Source: an uncultured virus (IMG/VR IMGVR_UViG_3300033630_000015)
Taxonomy: Duplodnaviria > Heunggongvirae > Uroviricota > Caudoviricetes
Strand: one strand, 5' to 3'
DNA: 20,000 nt
Virus record (IMG/VR): IMGVR_UViG_3300033630_000015
Shown one piece after another: positions 3,200 to 10,443 of the stretch. A program made the position numbers and the translations under genes. Each line of letters opens with the position of its first letter. Positions within the stretch are counted from its first letter, which is position 1. The notes below the pieces were generated by a model. It was given only the letters and a program-made list of their open reading frames with translations. It was not told where the DNA came from and made no database searches.

Positions 3200-3640
3200 T
3201 TATTCCTCCGTTTGTTCTTCATTCTCAATAAATGCTTCTTCTGCGCAAGATTCCGAACAGAATTTTCCATAATCAGGATCTCCGTAGATTACGAAAAATT
3301 CTTTGTCATCTCTCGGTTTGCCACAGTGATCGCATTTTGGCAATGATTCGTAGTGCTTCTCGATATCCTTTCTCAGTTCATCAATATCTTGAGGTTCGCC
3401 CTCTACCATGTCAAAATGGCCAAACGCAATCCCTATTTCCTCATCAGGGTGATCGGCCTGCAATGCCTCTCTGACCTTGATCGCTGCGTCCAAGGCTTCT
3501 CTTGGGTCGTCGTATTCTCCTTCGCCTGGATAATCAGTGGCAAGCATATCTGAACCGGCGTAATCGATTCCTGGATATGCTATTTCTACCATATATTGTC
3601 CAGAGTAAAAATAATGTTGGCAATTTACGAAGTATGGCAT
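3200..3640 (-). CDS. acidic hypothetical protein with C-terminal treble-clef (TRASH/FCS-like) zinc finger
   Basis: CDHC...FCSESC; GAGGTGA upstream. Confidence 0.85.
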   Translation of the reverse strand: MPYFVNCQHYFYSGQYMVEIAYPGIDYAGSDMLATDYPGEGEYDDPREALDAAIKVREALQADHPDEEIGIAFGHFDMVEGEPQDIDELRKDIEKHYESLPKCDHCGKPRDDKEFFVIYGDPDYGKFCSESCAEEAFIENEEQTEE

Positions 3641-3646
3641 TTTTAA

Positions 3647-3898
3647 TCACCTCAGCTCCCATACATGAATTTCTTGTACTTCATCGGATTCTTCCATGTG
3701 TTCCATTCTGAGTTCGACGATAATCGTGCCGGCCAGCGTTGATTTGATTTCTGATATGATTGATCTATAGTCGTTTTCCCACTCATCTGCTCCCAGTTTC
3801 GATATGTGTCGGTCTAAGTCTCGTATTGCGGTTTCGTTGTTTTTATTTGCAATGTAGACGCCGGTATCTTTTCCGTCTTTGTAAACTTTAAAGATCAT
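3647..3898 (-). CDS. hypothetical protein, paralogue of 4417..4695
   Basis: Shares LDRHISKL, EWENDYR, EIKST, IIVExRMEH and MEESDE with 4417..4695. Confidence 0.85.
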   Translation of the reverse strand: MIFKVYKDGKDTGVYIANKNNETAIRDLDRHISKLGADEWENDYRSIISEIKSTLAGTIIVELRMEHMEESDEVQEIHVWELR

Positions 3899-3911: not shown

Positions 3912-4157
3912 TTATGTTGTCGATTGGCAGTCTACATGGTTTTTTATCTTTTTCACCAGTTCTATATTCAGCCTTTCAGCTTCGTCCATGTTTCCTATTC
4001 CCAGTAGACCCAATATCTCGCATAAACGGTCTACGACTTCTGTCAGTTCTTCCGCCATATCCGCATCGTCTTTAAAGGTCACAAGTAGTATATCTGTCGA
4101 ATATGTCAACATATTTGCATATCTCGATATCGCTTTTATCCGTTTATCCTCATCCAT
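3912..4157 (-). CDS. hypothetical protein (81 aa)
   Basis: ORF with GAGGTGA upstream. Confidence 0.8.
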   Translation of the reverse strand: MDEDKRIKAISRYANMLTYSTDILLVTFKDDADMAEELTEVVDRLCEILGLLGIGNMDEAERLNIELVKKIKNHVDCQSTT

Positions 4158-4192
4158 CTCAGGTCACCTCTTCGGCCAATCCAGGTTGTCAT

Positions 4193-4345
4193 TTATATCA
4201 TCACGCCTGTCAAAAATATGATAATTCCGACGATTGGCCCAAACTTGGAACCCCATCGTTCAAACCAGCTCCAGTGATTCGGACTGCCCATAAGAAGTAC
4301 CCATATAGTCATGAAACTGCTGATTGCCATTATGACAAGTTCCAT
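4193..4345 (-). CDS. small two-TM membrane protein (50 aa, MELVIMAISSFMTIWVLL...), not in the ORF track
   Basis: Translated by hand; two hydrophobic stretches; GAGGAG upstream. Confidence 0.65.
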   Translation of the reverse strand: MELVIMAISSFMTIWVLLMGSPNHWSWFERWGSKFGPIVGIIIFLTGVMI

Positions 4346-4346
4346 C

Positions 4347-4433
4347 TCAGGCCATCTCCTCGACCTCTTCATCGATCTCTTCTACCATCACCATTCCATC
4401 AACAACTGAACTTATTTCAACCCAGGTTGTCAT
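4347..4433 (-). CDS. acidic micro-ORF (28 aa, MTTWVEISSVVDG...)
   Basis: Translated by hand; GGTGA upstream; fills the gap between two genes. Confidence 0.4.
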   Translation of the reverse strand: MTTWVEISSVVDGMVMVEEIDEEVEEMA

Positions 4434-4695
4434 CTCTCACCAGCTCCCATATGTTAATTTCATCAATTTCATCAGATTCTTCCATATCAAGGTGTTCCAT
4501 CCTAATTTCGACGATAATTAATCCAAACGTGGTTGATTTGATTTCCGTTATGGTAAATCGGTAGTCGTTTTCCCACTCAACCATTGCTAATTTTGATATG
4601 TGCCTGTCTAGTTTACCTATCTTGGTCTTGTTGGGATCATCATGATTTATGTAATCCCCTGTAAATGTCCCGTTTTTGAAAATTTTAAATAACAT
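4417..4695 (-). CDS. hypothetical protein, paralogue of 3647..3898
   Basis: GGGAGG upstream; clear similarity to 3647..3898. Confidence 0.85.
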   Translation of the reverse strand: MLFKIFKNGTFTGDYINHDDPNKTKIGKLDRHISKLAMVEWENDYRFTITEIKSTTFGLIIVEIRMEHLDMEESDEIDEINIWELVRDDNLG

Positions 4696-4710
4696 TTTTT
4701 GTCCTCCCTA

Positions 4711-4869
4711 TTACCAGAACTCCGTATCTTTGGGGAGACGCTTATAACCATCCTGCGCTCTTAGACTAGCCCTGGCCTCTCTTTCGGATACTGGCTTATC
4801 AAATCTAAGATCATTGCAGTAAAGGCCCATTCCTGGCATCCTGAAGTGCCATAAGACTTTTTTATGCAT
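4711..4869 (-). CDS. small hypothetical protein (52 aa, MHKKVLWHFRMPG...), not in the ORF track
   Basis: Translated by hand; GAGGAG upstream; fills the gap. Confidence 0.7.
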   Translation of the reverse strand: MHKKVLWHFRMPGMGLYCNDLRFDKPVSEREARASLRAQDGYKRLPKDTEFW

Positions 4870-4871
4870 TA

Positions 4872-5171
4872 TCAACTCTCCTCGAAAGTTTCATCATGGA
4901 TCTCTGGGTGATCGCAATTACACTTTTGAATTTCAGCGTACTCGGCCCCATAACGATGTTCATTTCTCCCCGGCCAGTCCGCTTCATCCAGCTCAACATA
5001 ACCGCATTTCCGCAATTCTGCGGCTTTTACCCCATAACGGGGTAATTGAAAAACGTCTATCAGATCCCGGACTGCTTCGGAATATTTTTTGAAGCACGCC
5101 AGATGATCCGGGAGACATCCATGAGACCCGCTCATGGCGATATAGTGGGGTTTATTCTTCTTCGTCGGCAT
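4872..5171 (-). CDS. hypothetical protein (99 aa, MPTKKNKPHYIAMSGSHGCLPD...)
   Basis: Start moved to ATG 5171 (GGAGTTGA upstream); the longer start overlaps 5152..5358. Confidence 0.8.
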   Translation of the reverse strand: MPTKKNKPHYIAMSGSHGCLPDHLACFKKYSEAVRDLIDVFQLPRYGVKAAELRKCGYVELDEADWPGRNEHRYGAEYAEIQKCNCDHPEIHDETFEES

Positions 5172-5358
5172 GGTATTCTTCAACTCCTGATAATTTATAA
5201 AGGTCTTTCCAAAGTTTTTCACATCTTTCGCAGCGAACGAGCATCCATAACTCATCCCCATATCGTATATTTCCCGAATCGATCTCGTCAGATCCGCAAT
5301 ATGGGCAATGATTACCACCGTCTTTAAGATATTTGGCTTTGGCCTCATCAGAGATCAA
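5152..5358 (-). CDS. zinc-ribbon protein (68 aa)
   Basis: CPYCGS...CERC. Confidence 0.8.
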   Translation of the reverse strand: MISDEAKAKYLKDGGNHCPYCGSDEIDSGNIRYGDELWMLVRCERCEKLWKDLYKLSGVEEYHADEEE

Positions 5359-5360
5359 GT

Positions 5361-5576
5361 TTAATCATCCGCCGCATAATTTATGTCCTGGCCAAGCCTA
5401 AAGACTTGCTTTTCAAGGTATGGGATATTGCCGGAGATTCCGTAAATTGTGCCGTCTCGGGTTATAAAGATGGCTCCGATATCGTCATCAGCAATTCCCA
5501 GGTTAACCATGACAGCTTTGACATCTTGACTATCTGAGATGAGCTGGGCGTCTTGTGGAATATCTTTAACTTGCAT
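5361..5576 (-). CDS. hypothetical protein (71 aa)
   Basis: ATG 5576 with AGGGGA upstream; part of the operon. Confidence 0.75.
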   Translation of the reverse strand: MQVKDIPQDAQLISDSQDVKAVMVNLGIADDDIGAIFITRDGTIYGISGNIPYLEKQVFRLGQDINYAADD

Positions 5577-5682
5577 TATCAAATCCCCTGAATCGATCTA
5601 CAAGCTCATCGAATGTTTTGGTCCCGGCCATTGCTTGGAGAACTCTGGCCGCGCCGTTCGGAATATCGGCAATCTTCATCAT
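5566..5682 (-). CDS. micro-ORF (38 aa, MMKIADIPNGAA...)
   Basis: Translated by hand; GGAGG upstream; start overlaps the previous stop. Confidence 0.55.
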   Translation of the reverse strand: MMKIADIPNGAARVLQAMAGTKTFDELVDRFRGFDNAS

Positions 5683-5759
5683 TCTGCCTCCACGGAGATT
5701 CCCACAAGTTCTCCGGATTCCTCGTAGTATGTGACCCCATCGTAGGTGGCTGTGGTCAT
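5679..5759 (-). CDS. micro-ORF (26 aa, MTTATYDGVTYYEESG...)
   Basis: Translated by hand; ATG directly after the stop of 5760..6176; stop overlaps the next ATG. Confidence 0.5.
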   Translation of the reverse strand: MTTATYDGVTYYEESGELVGISVEAE

Positions 5760-6176
5760 TTAGGCCACAACCTTCGCACTGGGGAATGCCTCTGTTATGG
5801 CCTCATCATAAGGCCCGGCCCAAAATGGACTGTTTCCCGGAAGAGGATTCACAGGAGCGTTTACGTAGAATCTGAGCTTCTTGGCCTCTTTGAAGGCCCT
5901 GAGTTTGGTGAGAATGGCCTCATCAGGCTTGCCGCCTACGGTCTGAACCGCAATCATTGCTTTGCCCTTGTGTTCGTAGCGGACGATCAGCAATTTGCTG
6001 CTTGTCTTTTCGGCGGTGGGTTTGGGGGTTCTCGCTTTTTTGGTCTTGGGCTGTGTCTGGATGGGGGCCTGTGTCGCGGTGTTCGCAAATACGAGCATTG
6101 AGGTTAAGATGGCCTCATCATCTATTTTTTCGACAGTTTCAACTACCTTTTTTCTAAGTATGCTTATTTTGCTCAT
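5760..6176 (-). CDS. basic hypothetical protein (138 aa), first gene of the left array
   Basis: AAGGAGTGA Shine-Dalgarno; two domains joined by a K/P/T-rich linker. Confidence 0.85.
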   Translation of the reverse strand: MSKISILRKKVVETVEKIDDEAILTSMLVFANTATQAPIQTQPKTKKARTPKPTAEKTSSKLLIVRYEHKGKAMIAVQTVGGKPDEAILTKLRAFKEAKKLRFYVNAPVNPLPGNSPFWAGPYDEAITEAFPSAKVVA

Positions 6177-6189
6177 TTGGTATCACTCC

Positions 6190-7190
6190 TTTATTACTTT
6201 CCTGGAGGAATCTGAGTCGATTGCCTCATCAGGGTAATTAGGGGTCAGTGGACGATGCACCCAAAGGTTAGGAGGCCAATGGAAAAAGTGTCGCCCACTG
6301 TTGACGGGTTGTGAAGGGAGTTCAGCAATCCCGCCAATAGCAGTGTCCGGAATCGAACCGGAAGTATGCCTGCACTGCTTCTTTGCCGGAGCCCTGGCCT
6401 TCCCCTCGACCGGGACTCGTCGTCGTTATCGGTCCGGCGCTCGTATCTGGCCCGTTCGCTGTCGGCTACTTGGGCTATGCGAGCTAGATCAGAAGTAAGG
6501 GCATTTTTGGCCTTTGGCGACTACCCTATGGTTCGGCTGGGTTTTTGGTGAGATGGCGTCTCGAAACCCGGCTTACACTAATCGCCGCATCAGGGCTAGT
6601 CAAATCCTCTGAATCGATCAGATTTGGCCGTATCAGAGTTTGGTCAATCGGTTAGGTGGAAGGGGTTTCTTTTTCGACGGCATTGCAAAGGGGAATCTGC
6701 AATCGTGATCATTTTTCCTTCCTCGGCTCGTCACTCTGGACTGATCCATTGCTCCGATTGACTCCGAAGGGTTGATCTGACCTTTGAGCTTGTGGCTTTT
6801 GGGTGGAGCCATTGCCGTTTGTTGAGGTTCCGCCTCGACTTTAAGCCCAGCCTACGGAATGAATACCGATTTGCGGCTAGGACGGCTAACCATTGTTGCG
6901 CGGATTGATTGCTTTTGGCTTTTGGAGTCTGATGGAAAAATCGGGACTGGGATGCCATCTATTGCCCATATCCGTATTTCCTGCTCCGAAGTTGCTCTGT
7001 ATCACCTCGATTGATGCCTATCTGTTTTCATAAAGCCGATACCTGATGATATTGATTTTGATTAACCCCAAACCGCCCAGCAATGAAGATCTCATTTCCC
7101 CGGAATTCGGAGAGATCGCCGGTTTTGGCCTGCCTGCTCTATTTGGGATTTTGGTTTTGTGCTCCGGTGTTTGGTTATTCGCCTTCGCAC
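6190..7190 (-). ncRNA. candidate large structured RNA / ~1-kb structured leader
   Basis: No credible ORF; upstream TATA box; many nested helices, e.g. GTCAATCGG/CCGATTGAC (6754-6762/6643-6651), AGCCCTG/CAGGGCT, GGCGATTA/TAGTCGCC, CAGTGGGCGA/TCGTCCACTG, CTCTGA/TCAGAG, ATTGCA/TGCAAT, GATCTC/GAGATC. Confidence 0.65.
6339..6379 (-). ncRNA. 41-nt tRNA-like element (perfect 7-bp acceptor stem + T arm)
   Basis: AGCAGTG-CAGGCATACT-TCCGG-TTCGATT-CCGGA-CACTGCT, followed by A at the discriminator position. Confidence 0.8.
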
Positions 7191-7228
7191 AATACCTCTC
7201 TTAGGCCTTGAGGATATAAAGCTTGCTG
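7188..7228 (-). promoter_or_regulatory. archaeal promoter (BRE-like + TATA TTTATATC, predicted start about 7188-7190)
   Basis: GCAAGC-TTTATATC at 7226-7213 with TG initiator steps about 23-25 nt downstream; the same GCTTTATATC recurs at 7620-7629. Confidence 0.6.
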
Positions 7229-7461
7229 AACAACTATGCCCTACTGTGATCGATATGGTGATATCTTGTACGTTGATGTACATATTTGTACATTGGAAAG
7301 GATGGTTGGGGTGGTCGATTTCCGCGATGATGGCGCTTGATAGTGGTTTGATGTGGCGGGATGGCGACGAAAGGCGGAAAAATCGGCAACTGGCGGCTGT
7401 ATATATCATGTACGCACGCGTATATCTATATATAGGGGAGATATTGCCGCCTGTTATCGAT

Positions 7462-7537
7462 TATATGGGATATATGCGGTCGATGATGGCTACTGATAGC
7501 GATATATGGGATATATGTGAGATATGTGTGATATATT
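7462..7537. repeat. short GATATATG-type tandem repeats
   Basis: TATATGGGATATATG at 7462-7476 and 7503-7517, with degenerate copies to about 7537. Confidence 0.6.
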
Positions 7538-7619
7538 CGAAAATTAATAAAAATGAAAAAGATGAAACGAAAATTTTTAAAATGAAATTAATTCAATTTA
7601 CTATTATAGGGGATATCCT

Positions 7620-7629
7620 GATATAAAGC
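7620..7629 (-). promoter_or_regulatory. second GCTTTATATC TATA-like box
   Basis: Identical 10-mer to 7213-7222; also has TGTACA-like boxes upstream. Confidence 0.45.
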
Positions 7630-7767
7630 GATAAGGGGAGGGGCCAAATCCAAGTGCACAGAAATGGACATTGGCGGCGAGAGGTTGGCAATGGTGCTTG
7701 AAGATATGCATTGGGACCCGGAGATGTGCATTGATGTACGAATATGTACATTTTGGCGTTGGCAGTA

Positions 7768-7847
7768 ATATAACCCTAGAAATGCCTCAACCCGCCTACG
7801 GAACTATTGACTCACCAATGTACATATCTATCCATCTAGGGTTATAT
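7768..7847. repeat. perfect 13-bp inverted repeat, 54-bp spacer
   Basis: ATATAACCCTAGA (7768-7780) / TCTAGGGTTATAT (7835-7847). Confidence 0.8.
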
Positions 7848-8188
7848 GAGCGCCTTGTAGCCCAGATCTGAGCATGGTTGAAGAAGGCAATCCCGGTATG
7901 CCTGGCCTGGCACCCACATCCAGCAATCTCCTAATATCAAGTTCATATGAGGTTCATATCGTCACTAGCGATCGAATATGTACATTGCCGGGCTGGAATT
8001 ATCAGGAACGGCCCGATTCAAGCACCAATGCGCAAATATGTACATCAGGCCGCATATACCAGCATCCCCCAACCCGCGAGCGCGACAATGTACCTTTCCA
8101 GACATTAAACCCCCCATATTTCCACTAGTGTAAACCCCAAGACAATAATGCTCACATTAATACAATAACACACAGCAGCGACCGAATA

Positions 8189-8269
8189 GGTGCGCATTAG
8201 CGCACCCTTCCCCTCCCGTGGAGGGGATTGAGGGGAGGAACCAGAAAGCTCCTACGTCACTTTCCGGTT
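8189..8269. other. cluster of three adjacent hairpins
   Basis: GGTGCGC-atta-GCGCACC; TCCCCTCC-cgt-GGAGGGGA; AACCAGAAAG...CTTTCCGGTT. Confidence 0.65.
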
Positions 8270-8521
8270 GGGAAAAAAGATTGTATCAGAATCACATACC
8301 CCAACATAACCAAACCACAACCCAACCCTAAACCAAATAGCATAGCGCCATGCACCACAACAACCAGAACCAACAACCCACATAATACAATCTAACCCCA
8401 TCAACACCACTACAAATAATATCTACATAGCCTCGACCCTATAATAGAAAATTGGATTATTTTCGAAAAATTTCAAAAATTTTAGCAGATATCGATTTTA
8501 AAAAATAAATATCCGTTGACA

Positions 8522-8761
8522 TCATATCCACCGTAATCGATTTCTCACAAATCGCAACCAGTCGCGCACTTTGTCCATTATTCGACGTTCGTTGCCACCA
8601 TTTCTTGCCATTATCCTCAACTCCTCCCAATACAAATCAGTCTCAGCAACCATCTTCGTTCTCCAAGCCAGATACTCTTCCTCTGTCATATCATCAGGCC
8701 CAAACACAAGAACCCCATTAATTACCTCTGAAATCACGACGTGAACCTCCCATCCTTCCAT
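8522..8761 (-). CDS. hypothetical protein (79 aa)
   Basis: Last ORF of the right array; overlaps the end of the YkgJ gene. Confidence 0.7.
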   Translation of the reverse strand: MEGWEVHVVISEVINGVLVFGPDDMTEEEYLAWRTKMVAETDLYWEELRIMARNGGNERRIMDKVRDWLRFVRNRLRWI

Positions 8762-9183
8762 GCCCCAATATACCTCAGATAATCCTCAAGCTCAAGTATG
8801 CGCAGGTTAGTCACCTTTGCCAACTTAATAATCACGTCCTGGTCATCCATTTCAGGCAATTCGCCCGTTGATGTCTCGCAATAAATCGTAGGCCCAGCCA
8901 AATAAGGATACATCCTACAAATCAGAGGTCTACTCCGATATATCCGGCATCCATTTTGATAAAACTCACATGGGGCCACATTCCGCAACGTCAACCTCTC
9001 ATCATCCTTTGGATGCCTCATAAAATGACGTTTAGCCGCCAGTCTCATCGAAATCCTAAACCTTCTTGCAATTCTAAGCGCATCCCTTGGATATATGTCA
9101 ACAATTTTCGGTTCCTTGCAACACGTCCCACATCTCTTGCACTCGAAAAAGATCTGCCTAATAGCGCGCTCTTTCCAATTCAT
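8734..9183 (-). CDS. YkgJ-family cysteine-cluster (CxxCxxCC, Zn/Fe-S chelating) protein
   Basis: FECKRCGTCC, PCEF, CRIYRSRPLICRMYPY; ATG 9183 with GGAGGT. Confidence 0.9.
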   Translation of the reverse strand: MNWKERAIRQIFFECKRCGTCCKEPKIVDIYPRDALRIARRFRISMRLAAKRHFMRHPKDDERLTLRNVAPCEFYQNGCRIYRSRPLICRMYPYLAGPTIYCETSTGELPEMDDQDVIIKLAKVTNLRILELEDYLRYIGAWKDGRFTS

Positions 9184-9344
9184 ACCCCAACCTCCTTTCC
9201 ACAAAACGGGCAATACGTCAACTCATAATAAGCCATGTCTCGGCCAATCCACAACCTACCGTTGCGGCTTCTAACAACCAACGCATGAATCGCAGATTTC
9301 ATAGTTTCACAGCATATGCACATGACCATGCCTGGCACTTTCAT
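9180..9344 (-). CDS. small zinc-finger protein (54 aa, MKVPGMVMCICCE...YCPFCGK), not in the ORF track
   Basis: Translated by hand; ATGA overlaps at both ends; CxCC...CPFCG. Confidence 0.75.
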   Translation of the reverse strand: MKVPGMVMCICCETMKSAIHALVVRSRNGRLWIGRDMAYYELTYCPFCGKEVGV

Positions 9345-9760
9345 AGTTTAAAAGTCATCTCCTCGTCGTCATATTTAGGTTCCTTAATGGCAAAGAAGTC
9401 CTGCATGAACGGACTCACCATGGGCTCGGAAAATCCCTTGCGAACCCTGTCTCGACCGCAAACGACCATGTTTATGATCCAGGTTCCACTGCCCCGTACC
9501 CTGCGTTCTTGCCCACAGACAAGATGGGTTTTAGGCCGCGTGCATACCTCAATCTTGCCCACAAGGTGCTCCATATAACTCGGCAATACCCTGTTCTCGC
9601 TGTAGTCCTGTGCTAGTGAGGAGTTGCCGGGAATTTGCCCCCCATCCACAGTCTTTTGGTCAGTACTACTTTGCAAGTTCGTCATGCTCAACTTCAGCAT
9701 CGGAAAATCAAATTGAGGAACCTTACCAGAAGGAAGGCCCATAGACCAGAAATTATTCAT
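9341..9760 (-). CDS. hypothetical protein (139 aa)
   Basis: ATG 9760 with GGAGGT upstream. Confidence 0.75.
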   Translation of the reverse strand: MNNFWSMGLPSGKVPQFDFPMLKLSMTNLQSSTDQKTVDGGQIPGNSSLAQDYSENRVLPSYMEHLVGKIEVCTRPKTHLVCGQERRVRGSGTWIINMVVCGRDRVRKGFSEPMVSPFMQDFFAIKEPKYDDEEMTFKL

Positions 9761-10443
9761 CAAATACCTCCATTCATAGCGCACCAGGCCATCATAAACG
9801 GTTGAAAATGACCAGGATGCCCTCTTATGTACATTGGCTCAACGTGTTCAAAGAGTTTTCCAGCAATGTCTTGCTCATGATCTCGGAGCCATGTGGCTGC
9901 CTGTTCAATTTCCTCGCATATATGATCGCATGCACAGGAATCGCACCTTTTTCTGAACTCTTCTTCAGCGAGGTCAATGCCAATCAAAACATAGTCGGCC
10001 ATGTCTGGATCTGAATAAATCTCGTCAAGCGAATTATTCGCAGCTTCGAACTCGTTATTGGCAAAGATATCAACTTTCGAGATCGTCGTGACCTCATATG
10101 TCAGTCGATAATGTTTAGCCAAAACTCCAAGAGCAACCTCGCATCGTATAGCCAACGCAAGATTATCGTTCAAGTATTTCAGGAACGCATCAACCAGTTT
10201 GCAATACTCTACAAAAGCTTCTGGCGGGCAAGGTAGCAAAAAGGGCACTCTGCAATACAGGGATCTCTCATGGCAGCCCTCCCAGAAGAAATGGCTTATG
10301 TATCCGTCGTAATATAGCATGTACAACTGATCAACAAGTCCTCTCAAATATTGGACTATCTGGTCTGCGGTTGATACCCTCGCATCGAAATACAGGTTCG
10401 GTGTTCCGTTGGCCAGGATATCGGCAACTACTAGGTCATTCAT
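9760..10443 (-). CDS. hypothetical protein (227 aa) with CxxCxCxxxC cluster
   Basis: Start moved to ATG 10443, near the upstream stop; CDSCACDHIC. Confidence 0.8.
   Translation of the reverse strand: MNDLVVADILANGTPNLYFDARVSTADQIVQYLRGLVDQLYMLYYDGYISHFFWEGCHERSLYCRVPFLLPCPPEAFVEYCKLVDAFLKYLNDNLALAIRCEVALGVLAKHYRLTYEVTTISKVDIFANNEFEAANNSLDEIYSDPDMADYVLIGIDLAEEEFRKRCDSCACDHICEEIEQAATWLRDHEQDIAGKLFEHVEPMYIRGHPGHFQPFMMAWCAMNGGI

Follow-up and report, generated by a model that had tools for sequence, protein, structure and literature searches.

What does a virus encode in about 1 kb of DNA that holds no credible open reading frame? The window analysed here is the whole 20,000-nucleotide stretch from an uncultured member of the Caudoviricetes (IMG/VR record IMGVR_UViG_3300033630_000015), and the question is raised by positions 6283–7220, read on the minus strand. 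A first-pass annotation, made from the letters alone, had proposed a large, ornate RNA outside the known families, carried by an archaeal virus-like element; the Rfam, covariation and RNA-library results described here agree with that proposal. The stretch is free of ORFs and holds a structured non-coding RNA that is conserved across homologues. On balance, and by a little better than an even chance, we read it as the gene of a large (~0.65–0.9 kb), highly structured RNA without a protein product, which would act in trans in digester viruses of 60–75 kb.

The lack of a credible ORF over ~1 kb was borne out in all 15 sequences available, the window and 14 homologues: each frame of both strands contains 7–21 stops. 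The longest ORFs within the RNA stretch (40–120 aa) lie at different positions in different homologues, and a conserved open frame was found in none of the 15. Indels among the homologues are mostly of 1–2 nt. A decayed gene, which the annotation had named as an outcome that would speak against its proposal, is contradicted by the stops that riddle every frame in all homologues. The RNA is present in one copy per genome. We searched the window and four homologues (L016, L023, L034 and L027) with cmscan against all 4227 families of Rfam 15 at E ≤ 1. As the annotation had expected of a novel RNA, no family matched it; the homologues returned zero matches, and the sole match in the window was a chance-level sR2 elsewhere. 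The models for GOLLD, for ROOL, and for RNase P RNA, group I and II introns and SRP RNA were all without a match in these five sequences. Neither ARAGORN nor Rfam reported a tmRNA in the window, where both acceptor strands lie within 41 nt of each other at the 3' side of the RNA.

The homologues comprise 13 distinct close variants, termed lineage A, and two distant lineages, B and C, which share 54–67% identity with lineage A. In all three lineages the RNA lies between an iteron-rich, origin-like region and one gene of 138 aa, and both synteny and the promoter block are kept. A core of ~450 nt with at least 12 helices is common to A, B and C; the peripheral domains vary by lineage. The stretch was carried by 20 of the 24 runs listed (16 studies; digester, wastewater, biogas and landfill samples), among them six RNA-library runs from five studies. 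No match was found among 50,697 phage records, either by blastn ('distant') with the RNA or by tblastn with the prim-pol/helicase; five scans of viral contigs returned the same 3–4 contigs each time and nothing further, and a protein atlas gave no usable match. Six of 21 metagenome loci (L017, L019–L022 and L030) were dropped as chance matches of an 18-mer. One 2.4-kb copy was located, by a genome-contig scan, on a single short contig of a MAG labelled Alphaproteobacteria; we take that contig to be mis-binned and reject Alphaproteobacteria as the host.

Table 1. Features of the RNA locus and its surroundings (positions in the window).
Feature	Positions	Strand	Remarks
Promoter-like block, TTGTTCAGCAAGC then TATA-like box TTTATATC	7213–7233	−	box at 7220–7213
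Predicted primary transcript, ~905 nt	6283–7190	−	both ends putative
5' domain, five nested helices, 30 pairs	7064–7150	−	lineage A only; absent from B and C
GAGGTGAT, 5' edge of conserved core	7001–7008	−	invariant in 15 of 15 sequences
Hairpin Pa, long, irregular, 19 pairs, conserved loop	6921–6990	−	core; 10 of 19 pairs change on both sides (A, B, C)
Three-way junction Pb	6814–6886	−	core; closing stem, 7-bp arm with inner hairpin, 7-bp hairpin
Hairpin Pc, C-rich loop	6793–6811	−	core; 3 of 5 pairs change on both sides (B, C vs A)
Lineage-A multi-branch domain	6616–6782	−	encloses invariant hairpin Pe
28-nt block AATGGATCAGTCCAGAGTGACGAGCCGA with bulged hairpin Pe	6723–6750	−	identical in lineages otherwise 54–67% alike
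Hairpin Ph, 10-nt loop ATTTGACTAG (6605–6596)	6590–6612	−	3 of 6 pairs change on both sides
Domain Pi/Pj/Pk: 8-bp stem, 7-bp stem, 4-bp hairpin	6516–6586	−	A, B, C
Two-tier hairpin Pl/Pm	6439–6484	−	2 of 13 pairs change on both sides; 100% of cells paired
tRNA-like minihelix	6338–6379	−	lineage A only; absent in B and C
3' trailer: 14-pair hairpin (6337–6301), 4-bp hairpin (6299–6287) into T5 (6287–6283)	6283–6337	−	
Downstream gene, 138 aa	5760–6176	−	co-conserved, same position in A, B, C
ORF-poor upstream region	7234–8520		repeated ATGTACA-type motifs, GATATAT repeats, AT-rich stretch

The annotation had called for a covariation test among homologues, and its result was strong: compensated pairs exceeded both shuffled and slid controls in three counts. 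In a curated, full-length model of the 13 lineage-A sequences (195 pairs in 34 helices), 97.6% of cells are paired, against 93.3% in shuffles, and both sides change at 44 pairs, against 21.2 in shuffles and 2–9 in slid controls; none of 500 shuffles reached 44. On one of five measures, that of further standard pair types, the model did not stand out (73 vs 75.8; 462 of 500 shuffles reached its value). Because a handful of haplotypes, combined as mosaics, make up the lineage-A sequences, the independent events behind these numbers are fewer than the cell counts suggest. When A, B and C were combined, 25 of 58 pairs were compensated in the 5' half of the core (11.7 in shuffles, 2–5 in slid controls) and 23 of 42 in the 3' half (7.8 and 3–5), counts biased in the model's favour, since both core alignments were fitted to the covariance model. 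RNAalifold gave 27 compensated pairs out of 239 among six close sequences, and a comparison of B with C alone gave 28 out of 143. Two core covariance models built on lineage A only recovered B and C at full length, the first at 110.9 and 96.3 bits and the second at 37.4 and 39.5 bits, with E-values from 2e-30 to 1e-9.

Folding energy gave a different answer. The annotation had looked for a fold more stable than that of shuffled sequence, and this was not observed: positions 6380–7190 gave z = −0.58, with 6 of 20 shuffles folding equally well, and three sub-domains (z = −1.48, −0.61 and −0.49) did not go beyond their shuffles either. In an A-rich RNA we give this test less weight than compensatory changes, and its z-scores were counted neither for nor against the RNA. 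Of the four tests proposed at the outset (Rfam, covariation, presence in RNA libraries and folding energy), the RNA passes three and fails in folding energy.

The individual helices named in the annotation, counted as 11, fared unevenly, eight being supported and three not. Homologue alignments support GATCTC/GAGATC, GCCGT/ACGGC, CTAGCC/GGCTGG, GAGG/CCTC and TGGCT/AGCCA, the 9-bp helix that encloses ATTGCA/TGCAAT, and GGCGATTA/TAGTCGCC, GGGTTT/AAACCC and GCTCG/CGAGC; GCCC/GGGC is compatible with them and is invariant, hence without covariation. GATGG/CCATC, CTCTGA/TCAGAG and AGCCCTG/CAGGGCT are broken in variants, and give way to the hairpin at 6612–6590, with its conserved 10-nt loop, and to TCGGA/TCTGA.

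The domains listed in Table 1 differ in how they vary. The 5' domain changes on both sides at 13 of its 30 pairs, with 95–100% of cells paired, and its outer 10-bp helix occurs as four different compensated haplotypes. GAGGTGAT is identical to a Shine-Dalgarno-type site that genes of this virus use, and the same 8-mer precedes the ATG of the ORF at 3200–3640; in lineage A no start codon follows it at a usable distance. Several candidate internal partners of GAGGTGAT can be drawn, among them the invariant CCATCTCACC block, which lie beyond the reach of covariation. Pb shows both-side changes at 12 of its 22 pairs, with 95–100% of cells paired across the three lineages. The multi-branch domain, made up of an outer 6-bp helix, TCGGA/TCTGA, the 9-bp helix, GAAGG/CCTTC and the ATTGCA hairpin, changes on both sides at 8 of 43 pairs (94–100% of cells paired); the matching region of B and C is shorter and built differently. 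Within it, all seven pairs of Pe are invariant, and exact matches of 29–30 nt are the sole blastn similarity between A and B or C inside the RNA body. The loop of Ph is conserved in A, B and C, reading ATTTRACTAG across lineages. Pi/Pj/Pk, whose 4-bp hairpin sits inside the invariant block CGAGAnnCCATCTCACCA (6563–6546), changes on both sides at 14 of 19 pairs, with 97–100% of cells paired in all three lineages. B and C have a two-tier hairpin comparable to Pl/Pm, with compensations of its own, which the covariance model left unaligned. Longer-range contacts may also exist: TTCATTGCT could pair with AGCAATGGA, as a long-range or pseudoknot interaction; AGGG/CCCT could pair across the Pi stem, in a register that is ambiguous in the alignment of B and C; and a further candidate, GCCCT/AGGGC, never varies.

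The annotation had placed TTTATATC just upstream of the RNA, and its core, TTATAT, proved to be unchanged in all 15 aligned sequences of A, B and C; the TTGTTCAG block upstream of the box is conserved in B and C too. No sigma-70-like site was found in 6100–7400, and YTTATAT occurs no more often than expected in the window (5 matches vs 7.4). Judged by these motifs, transcription would start ~24 nt downstream of the box and end at the T5 run that follows the 4-bp hairpin of the trailer. Oligo-T brings about transcription termination in archaea, and hairpin and T5 together are likely a termination signal; a scan for terminators of bacterial type found nothing. The trailer shows a both-side change at one pair and one-side changes at two, with 100% of cells paired.

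The RNA body was covered by contigs of all four RNA runs examined, from four studies. This agrees with the transcription that the annotation had looked for, with the qualification that these contigs carry no strand and that RNA libraries can contain DNA. Cover extended over 6416–7172 in X17, over 6422–6791 and 6988–7127 in X18, over 6516–7076 in X19 and over 6036–7357 in X15. Little or no contig cover was seen in X17, X18 and X19 at 6211–6411 and 7216–8220, gaps that carry no evidential weight. Near the 3' side of the RNA, contigs of these three runs stop at 6416, 6422 and 6444. These stops are not taken as a mapped RNA 3' end, nor the cover as a sign of higher expression than that of the neighbours; the loose end at 6416 is consistent with a different allele, and that at 6422 is adapter sequence.

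The annotation had also described a mini-tRNA directly after the RNA. An acceptor/T-arm minihelix does stand at 6379–6338, but it is not called as a tRNA by ARAGORN, which found no tRNA or tmRNA gene in the window, and the Rfam tRNA model was likewise without a match. It has the parts by which we define such an element, of the type that RNase P or the CCA enzyme takes as substrate: an acceptor stem of 7 bp (6379–6373 with 6345–6339) set on a T stem of 5 bp, a 7-nt T loop (TTCGATT; arm at 6362–6346) and an unpaired nucleotide after the stem, the A at 6338. The linker, of 10 nt, is variable. There is neither a D arm nor an anticodon arm; the minimum-energy fold of 6330–6382 shows the acceptor stem and T arm only, not a full cloverleaf. 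Across 11 sequences the stems stay constant while the linker changes. An A–U first pair and a free A behind the stem are features reminiscent of initiator tRNA in archaea. The release of an 810-nt RNA by RNase P at the minihelix, as the annotation had predicted, can be neither general nor essential to the family, since the minihelix is missing from B and C although both carry the RNA.

In the 138-aa protein, a basic disordered linker connects helices at the N-terminus to an alpha/beta domain at the C-terminus. The protein has 29 relatives at 60–95% identity, of which P0013–P0028 are the more distant ones (60–75%). It matched no Pfam family and, in a profile search, no PDB sequence (0 matches); its structural model (pLDDT 78) gave best fold matches that are weak, toward eIF1/aIF1/SUI1, and a Pfam scan of 25 family members at E ≤ 10 did not return SUI1. 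On the other side of the RNA, the ATGTACA-type and GATATAT motifs recur upstream in B and C as well, and GC and AT skew switch sign within the ORF-poor region, which has the appearance of an origin of replication or a control region. As for the host, the relative G001 encodes MC1 (PF05854; E 3.7e-19 and 8e-21; 70.1 bits, above the cut-off). Among 14 control genomes, MC1 was found in Haloferax volcanii and Methanosarcina acetivorans only. MC1 is an archaeal chromatin protein, and its presence in this relative supports an archaeal host, most likely a methanogen among the MC1-bearing archaea.

The order of events that we propose is as follows: the RNA would be transcribed from its own conserved TATA-type promoter and, in lineage A, transcription would stop at the hairpin and T5. 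Host RNase P and tRNase Z could then cut the lineage-A minihelix from between body and trailer, which would free an RNA body of ~770–810 nt. The RNA might act in trans during infection as a stable scaffold or decoy, in the manner of GOLLD and ROOL, probably with the co-conserved neighbouring 138-aa protein as its partner. Host or viral partners may make contact at the invariant single-stranded elements of the RNA, namely the Shine-Dalgarno-like GAGGTGAT, the 28-nt block with its hairpin, the loop ATTTRACTAG and the CCATCTCACCA block. The fixed place of the RNA, upstream of one gene and beside iterons, fits a role in cis equally well.

Two such roles deserve to be weighed, both of which we regard as unlikely. 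The RNA could be a giant cis-acting leader, the 5' UTR of the mRNA of the 138-aa gene, regulating it through sensing of a ligand, a protein or the ribosome, or through processing. It always lies directly upstream of that gene on the same strand in A, B and C; B and C show no obvious terminator between the two, and one X15 contig (6036–6492) joins the trailer to the beginning of the gene. Against this, lineage A interposes the minihelix, the 14-pair hairpin and the hairpin with its T5 run, and the gene has its own Shine-Dalgarno site ~100 nt past that run; B and C have an AT-rich, TATA-like stretch, read by eye, in the same interval. To our knowledge, known leaders are also far smaller than 650–900 nt with at least 12 conserved helices. 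A replication-linked RNA, whether primer precursor, copy-number regulator or origin-opening transcript, as at some plasmid origins, is no more probable. In all three lineages its promoter adjoins the repeated motifs (ATGTACA-type and GATATAT) and the AT-rich stretch, and strand composition switches at the iteron region. Transcription, however, would run away from the iterons; neither priming nor transcriptional activation calls for a core of ~450 nt with lineage-specific peripheral domains; signals of RNase H type or for primer processing are not evident; and the region is itself only a putative origin.

That the RNA is a ribozyme, self-cleaving, splicing or other, for instance a highly diverged RNase P RNA or an intron relative, is very improbable. 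Its size, the invariant nucleotides of its junctions and loops, and the tRNA-like element adjoining it in lineage A would suit such an activity; yet no Rfam ribozyme, intron or RNase P model matched at E ≤ 1, removal of the RNA restores no flanking exon-like reading frame, and the contigs of the RNA runs show no joint across it. Hardly credible at all is a stretch without function, a decayed gene or spacer whose helices arose by chance or by recombination among few haplotypes. The equality of folding energy with shuffles and the mosaic of few alleles in lineage A would fit it, but compensated pairs lie far above shuffled and slid controls in three separate counts, B and C at 54–67% identity keep the same helices with different letters, the 28-nt block is identical across lineages, and no homologue has an open frame.

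A more specific form of the trans-acting RNA is a long shot: RNA and 138-aa protein could together form a viral ribonucleoprotein that captures the translation-initiation machinery of the host. GAGGTGAT, an orphan Shine-Dalgarno site in lineage A, would be offered to the small ribosomal subunit, the lineage-A minihelix would serve as an initiator-tRNA-like element, and the protein would add a domain with weak fold matches to initiation factor 1 (eIF1/aIF1/SUI1). If true, this would be a new viral route to seize ribosomes or keep them sequestered, and an RNA of the large ornate kind would thereby gain a function, consistent with the ribosome binding reported for GOLLD (10.1101/2024.12.08.627333).

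Several known systems invite comparison with this RNA. GOLLD is an ornate RNA of ~800 nt, encoded by bacterial phages and prophages and without an assigned function; one part of it is conserved universally, its 5' part less so, and it is associated with tRNA sequences, sometimes located in a linker (10.1101/2024.12.08.627333). The present RNA likewise combines a core that is conserved with a 5' domain confined to one lineage and an element resembling tRNA. It differs in matching no Rfam model at E ≤ 1, in its apparently archaeal rather than bacterial host, and in having a minihelix, in lineage A only and with no tRNA gene in the window, where GOLLD has a full tRNA. ROOL, from bacterial phages and prophages, is likewise large and ornate and often lies near tRNA islands; neither a function nor a protein partner is known for it (10.1101/2024.12.08.627333). 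The two are alike in being large, ornate and virus-encoded; they differ in that the present RNA has no Rfam match, apparently belongs to another host domain and always adjoins the gene of a specific small protein. A further trait of GOLLD and ROOL is self-assembly into a homo-oligomeric cage.

In the eukaryotic MALAT1/mascRNA type, a tRNA-like structure directly downstream lets RNase P set the mature 3' end of the RNA. Lineage A likewise has a tRNA-like structure directly 3' of a long structured RNA, but the element lacks D and anticodon arms and is absent in B and C, and its cleavage is a prediction. The phi29 pRNA and ColE1 RNA II, of 120–550 nt, have roles in packaging or priming; like them, the present RNA is a structured RNA of a virus or plasmid with its gene near a replication origin (here a putative one), but it shares no sequence or structure likeness with them and matches no Rfam family. 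Large folded RNAs to which no function has been assigned, such as GOLLD, ROOL and OLE, are a major open puzzle of microbial RNA biology. So far we know of them only in bacteria and their phages, and the literature searched, with incomplete coverage, held no description of a large ornate RNA in an archaeal virus. The family described here joins a defined core, optional domains and a fixed gene neighbour as a possible protein partner to a predicted tRNA-like processing signal in one lineage, and it may bear on the effects of viruses on methanogens in biogas reactors. It is widespread in anaerobic digesters, from which material and metatranscriptomes are easily obtained, and the function of ornate viral RNAs thereby becomes directly testable in a new host domain.

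The sequence between the 138-aa gene (5760-6176, minus strand) and about position 8520 of the window contains no credible ORF. G+C content is 0.50-0.52 across 6000-7000, compared with about 0.42 in the surroundings, and the minus strand of this part is rich in A + C. In all 15 homologous sequences, comprising lineage A (the window RNA and its close variants) and the distant lineages B and C, each frame of both strands carries 7-21 stop codons; the longest ORFs (40-120 aa) occur at differing places, and indels inside lineage A are mostly 1-2 nt. The stretch is non-coding, and the first-pass annotation was right to describe about 1 kb free of credible ORFs. Each genome carries one copy of the RNA.

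Homologues were collected by several routes. The RNA region of a related 60-kb virus record (G001) is 86% identical to the window, and four IMG/VR contigs of 61-76 kb were reached via the downstream 138-aa protein. An 18-mer of the most conserved block, used as a metagenome probe, returned 21 loci: 10 close variants (79-97% identical), three of lineage B, two of lineage C, and six that were rejected as chance matches. A scan of genome contigs yielded one further close variant, a 2375-nt contig with the RNA (L035) that is 99% identical to the L005 variant; it belongs to a MAG labelled Alphaproteobacteria, probably through a binning error. After duplicates were dropped (L025 and L029 equal L002; L033 and most of L026 equal L001; L032 equals L023; in the RNA part only, L028 and L031 equal L016), the working set comprised 13 sequences of lineage A (two truncated at the 3' end), one of B and one of C. 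By blastn, A has just one exact block of 29-30 nt in common with B/C, plus an extra weak promoter-region match with C only (L023, L032); in model-fitted alignments, identity between A and B/C is 62-67% for the 5' core and falls to 54-59% over the 3' half. All three lineages have the same gene order: ATGTACA-type repeats, TTGTTCAG..YTTATAT, the ORF-free stretch, and a homologue of the 138-aa gene. In B and C the ORF-free, A/C-rich stretch is about 650 nt and the downstream homologue is 44% identical.

Covariation provides the evidence for structure. With six close sequences, RNAalifold predicted 239 pairs, of which 27 show compensatory double changes; when B was compared with C alone, 28 of 143 pairs were compensated. 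A nested model was then curated by alignment columns and counted against shuffled and slid controls. At full length, with 13 lineage-A sequences whose cells are not independent events because the lineage is a mosaic of few haplotypes, it holds 195 pairs in 34 helices: paired cells reach 97.6% (93.3% shuffled), 44 pairs changed on both sides (21.2 in shuffles; 0 of 500 reach 44), and the covariation score is 0.175 (0.096 shuffled). With partners slid by 1-3 columns, both-side-changed pairs fall to 2-9 and pairing to 32-49%. Further pair types did not exceed shuffles in this model (73 versus 75.8; 462 of 500 shuffles reach 73). Two covariance models were also used. R1, built from lineage A alone (6722-7016, 58 pairs), recovers both distant lineages full-length, scoring 110.9 bits for B and 96.3 for C; R2 (6381-6615, 42 pairs) scores 39.5 bits for C and 37.4 for B. 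In the resulting alignments, which are fitted to the very model they count, R1 has 95.6% of cells paired (86.6% shuffled) and 25 of 58 pairs compensated (11.7 shuffled; 2-5 slid), and R2 has 98.4% paired (89.7%) and 23 of 42 compensated (7.8; 3-5 slid). B and C are poorly aligned over the Pl/Pm part, and alignment A9 also includes four 23-nt chance fragments. The first-pass annotation had looked to both covariation and folding energy for its proposed RNA of about 810 nt; the former was borne out in the full-length, R1 and R2 counts, the latter was not, the minimum free energy of 6380-7190 being no better than that of shuffled sequence (z = -0.58; 6 of 20 shuffles fold at least as well). The RNA is structured, with a conserved core and a modular periphery.

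Features of the RNA locus, related genes of G001, and contig cover in RNA-library runs (X15, X17, X18 and X19)
Feature	Coordinates	Strand	Remarks
Promoter-like block	7233-7213	-	conserved; then variable leader
5' domain, five helices	7150-7064	-	lineage A only
GAGGTGAT	7008-7001	-	invariant; start of A/B/C core
Long hairpin Pa	6990-6921	-	core
Short helix	6920-6888	-	core; never varies
Three-way junction Pb	6886-6814	-	core
Hairpin Pc	6811-6793	-	core
Multi-branch domain enclosing Pe	6782-6616	-	extra in lineage A; B, C build differently
28-nt block with bulged hairpin Pe	6750-6723	-	core; invariant
Hairpin Ph	6612-6590	-	core; conserved loop ATTTRACTAG
Domain Pi/Pj/Pk	6586-6516	-	core; invariant block CGAGAnnCCATCTCACCA
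Two-tier hairpin Pl/Pm	6484-6439	-	core
Variable hairpin	6415-6403	-	lineage A
Minihelix	6379-6338	-	lineage A
14-pair hairpin	6337-6301	-	lineage A
4-bp hairpin leading into T5	6299-6283	-	lineage A
MC1-type archaeal chromatin protein	L038:15735-16172		G001
3141-aa PEGA-domain protein	L036:3768-13193		G001
X17 contig	6416-7172		
X18 contigs	6422-6791 + 6988-7127		
X19 contig	6444-7076		
X15 contigs	whole region		

The outer 10-bp helix of the 5' domain occurs in four different compensated versions. The 3' parts are lineage-specific: B and C have none of the lineage-A elements there and end in a different hairpin beside an AT-rich stretch. An 8-nt inverted repeat, TTCAGCAA (7223-7230) and TTGCTGAA (6312-6319) on the minus strand, has one copy immediately before the TATA box and the other in the 3'-hairpin loop; it brackets the whole unit and is invariant in lineage A, but may be chance because B and C lack the 3' copy. 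Eight of the eleven helices named from the sequence alone were right (GCCC/GGGC is compatible with the model and never varies); changes on one side only disrupt GATGG/CCATC, CTCTGA/TCAGAG and AGCCCTG/CAGGGCT, which were rejected, while the competing Ph and TCGGA/TCTGA stay paired through changes. The "mini-tRNA" has an acceptor/T-arm fold (7-bp acceptor stem, 5-bp T arm, loop TTCGATT, 10-nt linker), with invariant stems and a variable linker, but is not a tRNA gene by ARAGORN or Rfam; ARAGORN found no tRNA or tmRNA anywhere in the window.

The stretch 6250-7250 was found in 20 of 24 listed runs (16 studies), from bioreactor, wastewater, biogas, landfill and digester samples. Six positive runs, from five studies, are RNA libraries (word shares 0.42-0.63), and contigs of four RNA runs, each from a separate study, were compared over 4000-10000; in every case they cover the RNA body. 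Contigs do not reveal strand, transcript ends or expression level, and DNA may be present in RNA libraries; the minus-strand coverage sought by the first-pass annotation is therefore matched only as presence in RNA libraries, not as proven transcription.

The RNA would be transcribed from its own TATA promoter, in lineage A would terminate at the T5 run, and its minihelix would be cut by host tRNA-processing enzymes; partners would probably make contact at the invariant single-stranded and loop elements. The 8-mer GAGGTGAT also forms the ribosome-binding site of ORF 3200-3640, and the corresponding sites of several other window genes are similar to it. Since no start codon follows it in lineage A, it may be an orphan Shine-Dalgarno-like site or be paired internally, and the RNA holds several candidate partners. 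We judge a trans-acting scaffold or decoy, possibly complexed with the neighbouring protein, to be the likeliest role, at slightly better than even chances; a giant cis leader ahead of that co-conserved gene is improbable, and a ribozyme much more so. A non-functional stretch is the least credible reading of all.

A role linked to an origin, about as improbable as the leader, touches on the upstream region. The ORF-poor 7234-8520 holds at least six ATGTACA-type repeats, a GATATAT cluster and an AT-rich stretch (about 7540-7610), and GC and AT skew switch sign within it; its motifs also precede the RNA in B and C, and its sequence suggests a replication origin or control region. GCTTTATATC occurs again at 7621-7629, also on the minus strand and some 400 nt upstream of the RNA's TATA-like box; this additional copy may act as another promoter, with transcription running through the repeat region. 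Contigs over 8074-8450 have the highest depth figures in X15, and two hairpins at about 8180-8230 show, by eye, compensating stem changes relative to the L035 variant; this part may encode another small structured RNA, or else form a structured 3' end of the upstream operon.

Window gene products include a prim-pol/helicase, a PolB-type exonuclease, a QueE-like radical-SAM protein and many unknowns. Two paralogous small ORFs of 83 and 92 aa (3647-3898 and 4417-4695, minus strand) are clearly similar in sequence; X15 and X18 contigs skip 178-188 nt between 4162-4167 and 4341-4356, and variants without the segment between the paralogues probably exist. Thirty further G001 ORFs gave PEGA domains, a nuclease, a helicase and a clear MC1 match (E 3.7e-19; 70.1 bits in a six-frame search), with no capsid or terminase family in the Pfam scan. 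Of 14 control genomes, just two, those of Haloferax volcanii and Methanosarcina acetivorans, contain the MC1 family. MC1, the TATA-type promoter, the failure to find sigma-70-like sites in 6100-7400, and habitat together point to a methanogen as the putative host.

No Rfam family (4227 searched, permissive E <= 1) matched the RNA region, in keeping with the novelty proposed earlier. The sole match in the window, to the archaeal C/D-box sRNA family sR2 (4345-4395, minus strand), lies inside ORF-dense sequence, is weak (21.3 bits, where the gathering score is 42; E 0.62) and is probably chance. A literature search returned no account of large structured RNAs in archaeal viruses, which is no proof, most subscription journals being outside its coverage. 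Large structured RNAs of this kind form a real, new family, carried by putative methanogen viruses, and experiments on it are well worthwhile. GOLLD and ROOL are described as large ornate bacterial-phage RNAs of unknown function, often near tRNAs, that form cages, with GOLLD reported to bind ribosomes (10.1101/2024.12.08.627333). The window RNA is neither, as had been supposed, since the Rfam models give no match, and its apparent host domain also differs; GOLLD and ROOL are its nearest analogues.
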